Virus record (IMG/VR): IMGVR_UViG_3300042860_003432
DNA length: 64,000 nucleotides
Source: an uncultured virus (IMG/VR IMGVR_UViG_3300042860_003432)
Lineage: Duplodnaviria > Heunggongvirae > Uroviricota > Caudoviricetes
Reading direction: 5' to 3' (one strand)
The stretch's first letter is position 1. The number at the start of each line of letters is the position of its first letter. Below, in pieces: positions 40,779 to 63,822 of the stretch. The translations under genes were made by a program, and so were the position numbers. The notes under the pieces were generated by a model, which was not told where the DNA came from, made no database searches, and saw only the letters and a program-made list of their open reading frames with translations.

Positions 40779-40970
40779 TTAGTATTTTGTAGCAAGATGC
40801 CAATATCCGCAATAACTACATTTGTATGGTATTCTATCACTACGATACTCTGTCAGTATTCTTTTAGCATCACGAATAGCATCGTTGCGAGATTCATAGT
40901 TTGTTTTAGTTTCGCAGGAAAGTTTGTGATGATCATTTAAGAACTTGGTATAAGATTTTCTTGTAGTCAT
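40779..40970 (-). CDS. small zinc-ribbon protein
   Basis: YKCSYCGYWHL. Confidence 0.55.
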   Translation of the reverse strand: MTTRKSYTKFLNDHHKLSCETKTNYESRNDAIRDAKRILTEYRSDRIPYKCSYCGYWHLATKY

Positions 40971-42048
40971 CTGCTGTTATTGGCTTACCGTCAAGCACTT
41001 TGAATACAATCGCAGATCTGCCTGTGCTGCCATGTGCTTGTAATATTTCTGCGGCAGCAAACTTGCGTGGCATTTTAGAACGAGCGGCGGCAAAAGCAAA
41101 CAGTGCGTTCATTATGGTATGAACTTCTTTCATCGCATCGCATATGCGTGAAATATGCCCGATTGCCATATTTGCTATTTCGTAGTCAAACTTATGCGTA
41201 AGATAATCAAAGAACTCAGTATAGCCAGTAGGTTCGTGAGATAGTGTATGACGGTCCATAAACCAATCAATATATACATCAATTACCTTTTCTATGCTTG
41301 AGATTTCACTCTTGGCGCGATGCAGATACAAGTATTGAGCACTCTTGATCTTTAGAATATCCTGTTCGTCGTTGTAATACAGGCATATGCCCTCAAAGTC
41401 CCGCATATCAACCACTGCCTTCTGTAATTCGTCGATGGAGTTATAATTATAAAACTTTGGGCGGCGAAAGTTATAGTTTCTGGCAATATGGTTTAGTGAG
41501 TGCTGGTCTACAAGCGAATAGTCATCGTGTACAATTGCGGCAATAAGAACCATATCGGGCTCTTTGCCATAATCTAATACAATACGATTGGTAGGAGATA
41601 GCCACTCAAAGATATAAGAATGCTGAGTGGTGTCTTGCTTTTCAAGATATGATATAAACTTGGCATACTTATTTAGCAATACATCTATTTCGTGTGCGTT
41701 TTCTTGCCTACGAGCATCTGTCGTTCCTCTTGTACGAATAACAGTATGCCCCTTATATCTTGAGAATATAAGCGTAGAACCGTCCAACTTCTCAATCATT
41801 CTTGAACCAACGAGAGAAGACGGTGTGGGTGATATGTCAGGCTTTTCACCAAGGTTAAAAAACTTCTTGAAACTCAGTGAAACGGGATTTCCTTCCTTAT
41901 CCCACAGTGAAGATCTAAAGATAAGATTCTGCTTGTTCCAAGTCGCTCCGATATGAATAGGTTGAATCAAATAGCACTCGTGCTCACCAACGAGATGCTG
42001 GTGAACCATAAAAGAGTTTCTATCTATAGACTGTATGTCTATTTTCAT
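40933..42048 (-). CDS. T4 Rnl1-like RNA ligase
   Basis: KKFFNLGE, EKLDGS (motif I), FEW.SP.NRIV, EG, KIKS..Y; TTGACA-N16-TATGCT upstream. Confidence 0.85.
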   Translation of the reverse strand: MKIDIQSIDRNSFMVHQHLVGEHECYLIQPIHIGATWNKQNLIFRSSLWDKEGNPVSLSFKKFFNLGEKPDISPTPSSLVGSRMIEKLDGSTLIFSRYKGHTVIRTRGTTDARRQENAHEIDVLLNKYAKFISYLEKQDTTQHSYIFEWLSPTNRIVLDYGKEPDMVLIAAIVHDDYSLVDQHSLNHIARNYNFRRPKFYNYNSIDELQKAVVDMRDFEGICLYYNDEQDILKIKSAQYLYLHRAKSEISSIEKVIDVYIDWFMDRHTLSHEPTGYTEFFDYLTHKFDYEIANMAIGHISRICDAMKEVHTIMNALFAFAAARSKMPRKFAAAEILQAHGSTGRSAIVFKVLDGKPITADDYKKILYQVLK

Positions 42049-44265: not shown

Positions 44266-44646
44266 TGGTGGACGTGAGGGGAGTTGAACCCCTGTGCTGT
44301 ATAATATAACTACAACCATATACATGCTTATCTCTTATAATCCGACTAAGTTTGGTAGAGCACCACTTAGAAGTTGAGGACTCGTGTTTCTCGCTGTTGT
44401 TACGACCCTCGTCCTTACAACAGCAAGCAGATGGTCGAGCGTTTTATTCTATATATCTGCGTCAATAGATAAAACGGGTAGCAACTTAGGCTACAGCAAC
44501 TTCGCTCTTACGGCTTACGCTTAGGAACGATGTCTTAGCAAGATTTCTCTTAGCATTTATTTTTTCCAACGGGTATTATACAGAGACATTAGACTCTGTG
44601 CATGCGGACTGCATCTACACTATATAGTAGAATCCAGAACACGCCC
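44266..44646 (-). ncRNA. ssrA: tmRNA
   Basis: 5' GGGCGUG pairs with 3' CACGUCC-A-CCA including G3:U70; T-arm GGGGUUCAACUCCCC; tag frame 44554..44486 encodes AKRNLAKTSFLSVSRKSEVAVA*. Confidence 0.93.
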
Positions 44647-54173: not shown

Positions 54174-54248
54174 TGGTAGTGGGTGCGGCGTTTGAATCCG
54201 CTATCTTGGCTTATGAGACCAGCATTATACCACATTAATTAACCCACC
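54174..54248 (-). tRNA. tRNA with CAU anticodon (Met or Ile2), atypical and possibly degenerate
   Basis: Acceptor GGTGGGT/ACCCACT-A-CCA, loop CTCATAA; weak D arm and mismatched T stem. Confidence 0.7.
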
Positions 54249-60864: not shown

Positions 60865-60915
60865 ATGTTTATTTGTATATATTACATATTGCAGATATTA
60901 TGCCAATTATAAAAA

Positions 60916-60993
60916 TGGTACAGGTGGTGAGATTTGAACTCACAATCTTTCCGCCCCAAACGGAACGCGATAACCAGATTACGCTACACCTGT
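60916..60993 (-). tRNA. tRNA-Pro(UGG)
   Basis: TTCCG-TTTGGGG-CGGAA; acceptor ACAGGTG/CACCTGT-A-CCA. Confidence 0.9.
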
Positions 60994-61047
60994 ATAAGTG
61001 GTGTAATCAAATACACTAGTTATATCTATTACACCACGATATAACTA

Positions 61048-61278
61048 TTACTTACTCTCTACAAATCGATAGAGTTTTTCAGCAATTTGCATTGCTTCCT
61101 CTACGCGATTGTCTGGTGCAATCGGTAATGCTCCCTTGTTGGTTTTTTCAGCCTCGTATCGCAGCGCTTCTTGAGAGAAGTGATAACGACCATCAGCCAT
61201 TTCAAGTGCCTTGTTAAGCACTTCCCAACGGATTTCATAACCGCTTTTACCTGTCTTTTGTGTATTCGACTTATTCAT
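61048..61278 (-). CDS. hypothetical phage protein
   Basis: SGYEIR.EVL..A ... AEKLY.FV. Confidence 0.65.
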   Translation of the reverse strand: MNKSNTQKTGKSGYEIRWEVLNKALEMADGRYHFSQEALRYEAEKTNKGALPIAPDNRVEEAMQIAEKLYRFVESK

Positions 61279-61360
61279 TGTGTGTGTATGAAATGATTTG
61301 CGTTATTGCATCTCATTTCACCGCACATATTGAAGTAAAAATCTATTTTGTCAAGTATAT

Positions 61361-61670
61361 AAAAAAGACTTGTCGTTAGTATCGTATGCGACGCCACGAA
61401 GGGACTGCCCTAGTTATGTGTGAAAATATTGGGAGGAATAATGATTACCTCCATTCCAACTCCGATATTTCAGTTATTCAGTCAGATGATACCGTCGCAT
61501 CATAATGGTTCGCAATGTCATATGTTATTCTACATACAAACCATACCTCTGGTAGCTTCGGTTGGCCAACCTAGGCTTCAGCATAGTACCTTACTTACTA
61601 CTCGGAGCAGAAACTTACCTATACTCTTCGTATAGATAATGCGTTAGTCCCATTTGATAAGACTTTTTCC
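61361..61670 (-). ncRNA. candidate large structured ncRNA (~310 nt), family unknown
   Basis: Nested long-range stems, at least five hairpins and a loop-loop complement; directly follows tRNA-Ala. Confidence 0.6.
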
Positions 61671-61680
61671 GCCACAAAAA

Positions 61681-61756
61681 TGGTGGACCCAACAGGGTTC
61701 GAACCTGCGACCTTCTGCTTGCAAAGCAGCTTCTCTACCAACTGAGATATGAGCCC
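61681..61756 (-). tRNA. tRNA-Ala(UGC)
   Basis: G3:U70, CTGCT-TTGCAA-GCAG anticodon arm, TTCGA, CCA. Confidence 0.95.
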
Positions 61757-61760
61757 ATTA

Positions 61761-61806
61761 TTTGAAAGAACGAGAATAACTATGTACTAGTTTAATAGAA
61801 AGTCAA
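61761..61806 (-). promoter_or_regulatory. sigma70-type promoter plus boxA-like motif
   Basis: TTGACT-N16-CATAGT followed by GTTCTTTCAAA before tRNA-Ala. Confidence 0.6.
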
Positions 61807-61839
61807 CAACATTCTATCATTTTATATATATTTATAATT

Positions 61840-62271
61840 GTGAAACTATATCTACTAGCTAAAAAAATATTAGAAAATGATTATAAAGGAACGCATAAAG
61901 CTCCAAGTAAATCAAACGGCTCTCCTTTACACGACCTTACGCAGATATATCCAGATGACATATACTCAAATAAAGCAGTAGCATATTATGGCGATAGAGC
62001 AACAGATTATAGTGACCAGTTGTCTATTAGCATAATGCATAATACCAAAGATAAACCAGACGCTAAAGTAAAGATATATCGTGCAGTTCCTTCAAATATA
62101 CAAGGAGATATAAATGCGAGTGATTGGGTGACTATCAATAAGCAATATGCAGTTACTCACGGCGAAAGAACACTTGGTGGAGATTATAAAATAATAACCA
62201 AAGTTGTGCCAGCAAAGCATCTATATACAGACGCTAATAGTATTCACGAGTTTGGATATGACCCAAGTTAA
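61840..62271 (+). CDS. hypothetical phage protein
   Basis: GTG start after ATATTTATA; HKAP...PLHDL...YPDDIY, IYRAVP, DWVT...YA..HG, HEFGYDP. Confidence 0.7.
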   Translation: MKLYLLAKKILENDYKGTHKAPSKSNGSPLHDLTQIYPDDIYSNKAVAYYGDRATDYSDQLSISIMHNTKDKPDAKVKIYRAVPSNIQGDINASDWVTINKQYAVTHGERTLGGDYKIITKVVPAKHLYTDANSIHEFGYDPS

Positions 62272-63745: not shown

Positions 63746-63822
63746 TGGCGGGGTGCATCGGATTTGCACCGACTATCTATAGATTGACAATCTATCGCTT
63801 GTGCTTCATAAGCTCCCACCCC
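63746..63822 (-). tRNA. tRNA-Asp(GUC), atypical D and T loops
   Basis: ATAGA-TTGTCAA-TCTAT; T loop TGCAAAT; G73; CCA. Confidence 0.8.

Follow-up and report, generated by a model that had tools for sequence, protein, structure and literature searches.

What kind of RNA follows the alanine transfer RNA (tRNA-Ala) gene on the minus strand of the uncultured phage contig IMG/VR IMGVR_UViG_3300042860_003432, and where does it begin and end? The 64,000 nucleotides (nt) of this contig that were analysed are called the window below; DNA of the source phage was found in lake-water metagenomes. A reading made earlier from the letters only (the sequence-only reading) had placed here one structured RNA of about 310 nt, at 61361-61670, new or divergent, without a credible open reading frame (ORF) and possibly a ribozyme or a protein decoy. 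According to our analysis the conserved unit, which we call the core, is about 255 nt long and occupies 61426-61680 on the minus strand, its first base adjoining the CCA of tRNA-Ala, and the last 65 nt of the flagged stretch form a cassette of their own. It is close to certain that 61426-61680 is a structured RNA gene, and it is probable that the product is a free-standing, enlarged relative of the manA motif, about 255 nt in length. The expectation of a large and structured non-coding RNA was correct, while its novelty has to be qualified by a full-length, sub-threshold match to manA. At the Rfam gathering score no family is found over the flagged stretch.

The argument depends on relatives, for which uncultured viral contigs were scanned by patterns seeded from the terminal hairpin and the 5' motif of the core. 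These scans returned identical copies as well as relatives at 96, 94, 89 and 80% identity; a degenerate hairpin pattern gave 37 loci in viral contigs, 26 of them distinct, and 38 more distinct cores came from a metagenome scan, the metagenome and genome scans together having given 146 loci. The terminal-hairpin motif, exact or degenerate, retrieves both classical manA and the long forms. Besides the subfamily to which the window belongs, a sister group, subfamily B, was recognised, with cores of 285-300 nt and 15 sequences aligned; the two subfamilies detect each other by nhmmer at E-values (E) from 1.2e-5 to 2.8e-4, and the hidden Markov model of the second matches the window at 61429-61676 with E 2.2e-5. 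One sister-subfamily core (locus L154, about 430-721 as oriented) lacks the 5' third and is joined to a piece of a tRNA, which looks like a recombination scar within a tRNA array. Among GenBank phages no cultured relative was found by blastn in its 'distant' mode, where 142 records match, all of them within query positions 37-128, that is, the tRNA, and none covers 80% of the query. The nearest record, G001, overlaps by 106 nt only, at a contig end. Bacterial and archaeal genomes gave 28 pattern matches, none of which carries the 5' motif at the family distance, and three weak nhmmer matches confined to the terminal hairpin; the pattern and nhmmer searches gave no evidence for the long form in cellular genomes and no clue to the host.

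The case for the fold is comparative and not thermodynamic. The whole 326 nt fold at -86.7 kcal/mol (z-score, z, -1.92) and 4 of 100 shuffles fold equally well, and since this is only slightly better than shuffles, thermodynamics alone prove little. RNAalifold, applied to 9 and then to 18 sequences of the window subfamily (alignments A3 and A5), returned the identical nine helices for the core at 61426-61680. Pair counts were made on 17 distinct rows of this subfamily, from uncultured phage contigs: standard pairs occupy 98.2% of cells (shuffles: 87.4 +/- 0.6%), and 24 of the 64 pairs change on both sides (shuffles: 16.9 +/- 1.9), neither observed value being reached in any of 500 shuffles. 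When the 3' partners were slid by 1-3 columns, pairing fell to at most 45.9% and two-sided changes to at most 11 pairs. Subfamily B on its own shows the same plan, with 78 pairs, 25 of them compensatory, in its 15 sequences.

The same alignments bear on the possibility that the stretch encodes a protein, either in a 71-codon plus-strand frame (61420-61635) or in a small minus-strand ORF. The longest stop-free frame does lie on the plus strand in 18 of 18 relatives (45-83 codons), but in 11 of the 17 distinct sequences the length of the homologous stretch is off by a number not divisible by three, which breaks the 71-codon frame, internal stops occur in most, and the substitutions are compensatory for RNA helices. 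A coding function has in our opinion a practically negligible probability, and the claim that no credible ORF exists here holds.

The strongest helices are the hairpin with the GAAGA loop, a long-range stem and the 5' hairpins. At the 5' end (61641-61672), helix 1, GCG/CGC, closes helix 2, AGUCUU/GGGACU, and the two make up the module GUGGCGGAAAAA...UAACGC, which is common with manA and which cmscan aligns to manA helices P2/P2a; the closing pair of helix 1 changes from G-C to A-U in 7 of the 17 sequences, and a C-G pair of helix 2 becomes U-A or A-U in 9 of them. Helix 3 (61615-61639) is a 10-base-pair (bp) hairpin with the conserved GAAGA loop and two-sided changes in 9 of its 10 pairs; subfamily B has this hairpin too, with a GAAGA or GAAAA loop. 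Helix 4, the long-range stem UUCUGCUCCG/CGGAGUUGGAA (61603-61612 with 61454-61464), spans 61454-61612 and encloses helices 5-8 and the single-stranded CUGACUGAAUAACUGAAA; it changes on both sides in 7 of 9 pairs with 91.4% of cells paired, and its equivalent is present in subfamily B. Helices 5 and 6 (61545-61599) are the most sequence-conserved part, including a 12-nt palindrome, GGUUGGCCAACC, at 61560-61571; they are 100% and 99.4% paired with no two-sided change, and the counts do not settle the fold of 61545-61599. An alternative hairpin that places UGGCCA in a loop is 90.3% paired, without compensatory change, and was set aside as no better than the helix 6 of RNAalifold. Helix 7 (AUGGUUUGU/GCGAACCAU) and helix 8 (GAUGC-GACG-GUAUC) lie within 61488-61544 and show two-sided changes in 3 of 9 and 2 of 5 pairs, respectively. 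Helix 9 (61432-61452), the terminal hairpin GGAGG-UAAUCAUUAUU-CCUCC, is the 3' module common with manA and aligns in cmscan to the last manA hairpin. The pair counts are silent on helices 5, 6 and 9, because none of these changes on both sides within the window subfamily.

Most local hairpins of the sequence-only reading survive this comparison. The CTATAC/GTATAG hairpin is real and longer than had been claimed (10 bp, 9 of them compensatory), and ATGGTT/AACCAT is real too, with 9 bp and 3 compensatory. All 17 distinct sequences keep the GGAGG/CCTCC hairpin, which is invariant in the window subfamily; judged by eye, the stem varies compensatorily in wider relatives, to GGGGG/CCCCC in L027 and to GTGGG/CCCAC and GCGGG/CCCGC in L032/L081. 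Of GTAGTA/TACTAT only the inner 4 bp hold; of the two outer pairs, one is broken in 15 and the other in 8 of the 17 sequences, and a shifted register of 7 bp is 100% paired. The stem ATGAT..ATCAT also stands, but its loop is GACG and not the proposed GCGACG, part of which belongs to the stem, because covariation (GAUGC/GUAUC to GGUGU/ACACC) extends the stem.

The larger architecture that had been proposed fares differently. It treated 61361-61670 as one RNA held together by a terminal pairing AAAAAGUCUU/AAGUCUUUUU, a long-range GGGACU/AGUCCC helix and a GCGACG/CGUCGC kissing contact, and terminated at a U-run. Every string of it is present on the minus strand where it had been placed (GGGACT at 61651-61646, AGTCCC at 61406-61401, GCGACG at about 61497-61492, CGTCGC at 61393-61388, the U-run ending at 61361), and complementarity reaches 8 nt in the window (AUGCGACG/CGUCGCAU). 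Five sequences have both partners of these pairings, and the three were counted on them: pairing is possible for GGGACU/AGUCCC in all five and for GCGACG/CGUCGC in 93.3% of cells, but two-sided change is seen in 0 of 22 pairs of the three together, none of them covaries, and the terminal pairing is only 74% paired. GGGACU, moreover, forms the 3' side of a local hairpin that shows compensatory changes, and the GC of GCGACG sits in a covarying stem. Complementary 6-mers between the 65-nt tail and the 255-nt core number 6, against 4.6 +/- 2.7 in 2000 dinucleotide shuffles, of which 32.5% have at least 6. By these counts the long-range, terminal and kissing pairings are compatible with the sequences, to no greater degree than chance would give.

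The tail itself, 61361-61425 on the minus strand (UUUCACAC...GGGCAGUCCC...GGCGUCGCAUACGA...U-run), lies outside the conserved RNA and contains AGTCCC, CGTCGC, the 3' half of the proposed terminal pairing and the U-run. It is carried only by close relatives (L017, L010, L014, L007, L292, L230 and L270), and among these seven it is conserved as well as the core, which speaks for one continuous RNA. We nevertheless take the 255 nt as the conserved unit and the tail as separate, because a complete tRNA-Val stands between the end of the core (...CCUCCCAAU) and the start of the tail (UUUCACAC...) in L007 and L164, a different module of about 150 nt does so in L270, and more distant relatives, which are the majority, have no tail. 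A pattern scan for the tail gave 13 loci, ten from the same clade and three chance matches within unrelated sequence without tRNAs. It is probably a clade-specific portable module, as judged from its distribution.

The U-run at which the RNA had been thought to end does exist, in the separate tail, and no terminator is called there. By the usual criterion, a G+C-rich stem of at least 5 bp closely followed by a U-run, no intrinsic terminator was called at 61361-61400; the predicted hairpin is irregular and 6 nt away from the U-run, it is broken by changes in L010, L014 and L007, and the U-run is lost in L017 and L007. Folding of four tail variants gave z from -0.77 to +0.62, nothing beyond shuffles. 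The tail was also considered as a Pistol or other self-cleaving ribozyme and rejected as such, no ribozyme model matching it at E <= 10 in scans of 101 and 601 nt; the sole match of the 101-nt scan at that level is a meaningless 17-bit one on the other strand, and true Pistols in the relatives score 35-52 bits. Taking both sides, we consider a single RNA of about 310 nt quite improbable.

To what, then, is the 255-nt core related? The Rfam manA model (RF01745) aligns along its full length, model positions 1-192, with 61422-61694 of the window, at 33.9 bits and E 4.5e-7 in a 601-nt search, while the gathering cut-off of 55.2 bits is not reached. All eight further relatives scanned with the model, window-like or GC-rich, likewise gave a match, of 21.1-34.8 bits; a classical manA (L137) reached 68.8 bits in that scan. 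The agreement is located at the two ends. The manA 5' module, GUGAC-UGAAUAA with an enclosed hairpin and a UAAGGU return (P2/P2a), is aligned by cmscan to GUGGCGGAAAAA-GUCUUAUCAAAUGGGAC-UAACGC, and both of its helices covary within the family. The 3' hairpin of manA, with its 11-nt loop (GGUA..CA.UA.UCC), is aligned with posterior '*' throughout. Against the manA outer stem the window places UUUUG/CAAUA, in which one pair is flagged as non-standard, and subfamily B has AUAG/CUAU with one G-C variant; in the window subfamily the stem is unconvincing. The central junction of manA, three short hairpins and the P4 hairpin, is not found: there is a 90-nt insert and the rest aligns at low posterior, and the covarying helices 3-8 of the long form do not follow the model pairs. 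Neither is the core in the 5' untranslated region (5' UTR) position of manA, as it stands directly behind tRNA-Ala. We file the long form as manA-related and not as a member, because its terminal modules match but the score remains below the Rfam cut-off; that a relation exists is, in our judgement, very probable. From its sequence the long form would be an enlarged manA variant with a different central domain, uncatalogued in Rfam. In the searchable literature we found no long manA form and no manA beside a Pistol ribozyme described; supplements S1 and S3 of Weinberg et al. 2010, which may remark on tRNA neighbours, were outside that search.

The genomic surroundings tell more of how such an RNA could be made. 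The sequence-only reading had the element co-transcribed with tRNA-Ala, and the core does lie on the strand of that tRNA, directly behind it and downstream of one promoter-like site. The tRNA-Ala gene (anticodon UGC; 61681-61756, minus strand), called by ARAGORN and scoring 63.3 bits against the Rfam tRNA model, encodes its CCA, and its 3' end abuts the core, which is flush with it at 5 nt from the motif start. Upstream of the tRNA, at 61779-61806 on the same strand, a consensus scan found TTGACT, 16 nt and CATAGT, in agreement with the consensus at 9 of 12 positions; the relative L007 keeps this stretch, and we take the site as suggestive only because the region holds 9 such sites against 4.8 +/- 2.5 in shuffles. 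A same-strand tRNA or transfer-messenger RNA (tmRNA) gene lies within 250 nt in 21 of 26 distinct viral loci. In L164 and L152 a tRNA-Val or tRNA-Met follows the core after 11-15 nt, and in other relatives the core comes after a promoter-like box of its own and a short leader. A leader motif CATAG...GTTCTTT that might have been shared by the RNA genes of the window was rejected, since 9 matches at up to 2 mismatches were counted where 9.0 are expected.

Where tRNAs are not the neighbours, a ribozyme may be. The Pistol ribozyme (RF02679; cut-off 34.5 bits) stands behind the core in L068 (490-557, 52.1 bits), L027 (380-439, 35.0 bits) and L053 (222-281, 38.0 bits), directly or about 170 nt behind the manA-like RNA. 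In L231 a Pistol is recognised by eye just downstream of the core, where the loop and its pseudoknot partner change together, from ACUAGG/CCUAGU to ACCAAG/CUUGGU. In L053, L283, L241, L250 and L220 the core and the Pistol are separated by a further RNA cassette, conserved and unassigned, which is about 170 nt long and begins with UUUCGAGGCUUGAUCUCC... Such neighbours, together with the size of the core and its highly conserved central unpaired stretches, could suggest that the core itself is catalytic, self-cleaving or otherwise; however, no ribozyme family matches it even at E <= 10, and we argue that it does not cut itself because the relatives have separate cutters, tRNAs or Pistol. A catalytic core is accordingly given very little probability, and nothing was found that points to the ribozyme or the protein decoy once proposed.

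A different view follows from the annotation of manA as a cis-regulatory motif in the available text of the literature (Weinberg et al. 2010, PMC2864571; PMC9964418; PMC12197685), namely that the core is a leader or riboswitch, as Rfam types manA, which senses a ligand and controls the 76-codon ORF at 61048-61278 or downstream tRNAs. Its fold is complex enough for a ligand pocket, and some classical short manA copies have, by eye, their own promoter and then directly a tRNA. The downstream neighbour is not conserved, though: even among close relatives it is the 76-codon ORF here, tRNA-Pro in L010/L144 and tRNA-Val in L007, and elsewhere tRNA-Met, Pistol or other RNA modules. The ORF (minus strand) is without a PHROG match and has a TTGACA box of its own between the tail and its start, L010/L144 lack it and have tRNA-Pro immediately after the tail, and contigs from RNA libraries of two runs cover the ORF. 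Here the core stands behind a tRNA and not before one, and no terminator, sequestered ribosome-binding site or other expression platform overlaps with it. The variety of neighbours therefore argues against a cis-acting leader and fits an RNA gene whose ends are made by adjacent processing elements; we consider the riboswitch improbable.

Catalogued short manA is often a tRNA neighbour too. Classical short copies with a TTGACA/TATAAT-type promoter and then a tRNA (Asn, Gly or Tyr) within about 15-80 nt occur in L022, L029, L042, L052, L064, L077 and L102. A tmRNA gene lies just behind a manA-like RNA and tRNA-Met in L093/L152/L272. The window has its own tmRNA gene, at 44266-44646 on the minus strand, with 90.7 bits in Rfam and the tag peptide AKRNLAKTSFLSVSRKSEVAVA* according to ARAGORN. 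Two Rfam tRNA matches of about 42 bits, at 63749-63822 and 54177-54248 (both minus strand), are uncalled by ARAGORN and may be odd or decayed tRNAs of the array, which has 13 ARAGORN tRNAs.

Four metatranscriptome runs, each from a different study, have contigs that fall on the core, at 61460-61661, 61468-61746, 61439-61642 and 61429-61680. Contigs of this kind carry no information on ends, strand or level, nor do their depth figures allow genes to be ranked. No RNA contig covers the tail or the flanks at 60900-61022 and 61761-62100, which gives no evidence on transcript ends or on DNA contamination. In run X18, a 302-nt contig from a relative connects position 61429 with 61680 by way of a foreign spacer, 26 letters that make an inverted repeat, and the ends at this joint are the same boundaries as those given by the alignment. 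Such a joint means that this relative has either tandem copies or a circular form of the molecule. None of the fetched DNA loci has two core copies, and the 23-letter centre of the X18 spacer has 0 exact matches in viral_contigs. At 40933-42048 (minus strand) the window has an ORF that matches the T4 Rnl1-type 'RNA ligase and tail fiber attachment catalyst' family (phrog_562, E 1.9e-38), of interest because one RNA contig shows a 3'-to-5' joint.

From the information discussed above we propose the following working of the locus. The core and tRNA-Ala would be transcribed together from the promoter-like site at 61806-61779, and host processing of the 3' end of tRNA-Ala would free the 5' side of the core; in the relatives, the 3' side may be cut by RNase P (ribonuclease P) at a downstream tRNA or by self-cleavage of a Pistol. 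The released core would then act in trans and not as a leader of the next gene. We find it probable that the core is released as a separate RNA.

How the released RNA behaves may be guessed from the short manA RNAs, which, as far as the accessible part of a recent cryo-electron microscopy preprint goes, form RNA-only assemblies, a 60-mer, a decamer and an octamer, in which the molecules touch one another through kissing loops and through a GNRA loop and its receptor (10.64898/2026.07.01.735769). By analogy, the core could self-associate through loop-loop contacts into a defined RNA-only oligomer, with the self-complementary loop at 61560-61571 as the candidate two-fold contact; we rate such self-assembly as conceivable, somewhat short of an even chance. 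The long form keeps seven hairpin loops, including the conserved GAAGA loop. The loop homologous to 61560-61571 has a self-complementary centre, the tetramer GGCC, GUAC or GAUC, in 46 of 58 distinct long forms: GGCC in 20 of 20 sequences of the window subfamily, GUAC in 21 and GAUC in 5 of the 38 of subfamily B, a tally that counts few independent events because the sequences are related. Loop-loop contacts as a theme do fit the manA family, given the kissing loops of the preprint, but those loops are not the ones that the sequence-only reading had paired. Going further, the long-form manA-like RNAs might be a distinct class of phage-made self-assembling particles, freed by tRNA processing or by Pistol, which build an oligomer or cage with a two-fold loop interface that short manA lacks (UGGCCA here, GUAC or GAUC in the sister subfamily) and which are perhaps partly circular. 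We put this forward as a speculation that is unlikely to be right in its entirety; the partly circular form is suggested by the X18 joint between 61429 and 61680 and by the Rnl1-like RNA ligase of the phage.

Several observations weigh against an enlarged, free-standing and self-assembling manA relative. The thermodynamic signal is weak (z -1.92), and kinship among the sequences inflates the tallies. The manA score is well below the cut-off with only the terminal modules aligning, so that shared modules rather than whole-molecule homology are possible, and among 9 subfamily-B loci scanned there is no full-length manA match at E <= 0.1, L108 giving a short match of 20.9 bits. The ends of the core are alignment boundaries and not mapped transcript ends, and no processing element marks its 3' end within this window. 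The library contigs show presence only, as RNA libraries may contain DNA. Self-assembly is extrapolated from the shorter RNAs of one preprint, 12 of the 38 subfamily-B sequences have a non-palindromic GUUC or GGAC in the loop, and the best-supported fold buries part of GGCC in helix 6 (99.4% paired), the loop-exposing alternative being mismatched (90.3%).

As for the wider meaning, for 16 years manA has been classed as a candidate riboswitch, and the 2026 preprint, in its accessible part, shows RNA-only cages instead and leaves their biology aside. An enlarged relative that stands beside tRNAs or before ribozymes and appears in contigs of four RNA libraries supports the idea that the superfamily consists of free-standing RNA particles that phages produce together with their tRNAs. 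The exact boundaries and the candidate interface loop provide concrete constructs for the study of assembly and function, and it is apparent that the Rfam manA model misses a sizeable part of the family.

The manA RNA kind was already known, and what is new here is the enlarged form with a different centre. The long form resembles manA in the 5' module GUGRC-GAA-AA, followed by a hairpin and a UAA-G/C closing, in the 3' terminal hairpin with its GGUAAUCAUUAnUCC loop, and in a many-hairpin architecture found in phages of aquatic bacteria; some classical manA copies, by eye, likewise abut tRNAs. It differs from manA in length (about 255 nt against about 170-215 nt), in its centre, a larger domain of helices 3-8 with a long-range closing stem that appears as the 90-nt insert in cmscan, perhaps in the outer GGGAG/CUCCC stem, which is not evident in the long form, and in its place behind a tRNA and not in a 5' UTR; 21 of 26 relatives are beside tRNAs. 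GOLLD and ROOL are large ornate non-coding RNAs that are often encoded by phages or prophages beside tRNA genes and are reported to form RNA-only multimers, but at about 580-800 nt they are far longer than the 255-nt core, and neither has an Rfam match in the window at the gathering score or in 61200-61800 at E <= 10. The small stable RNAs of the T4 and T5 tRNA regions (T4 species 1 and 2, rnaC/rnaD) are non-tRNA products from within a phage tRNA cluster, co-transcribed with the tRNAs and freed by tRNA-processing enzymes; they are shorter than the core and, unlike it, are without manA-type modules.

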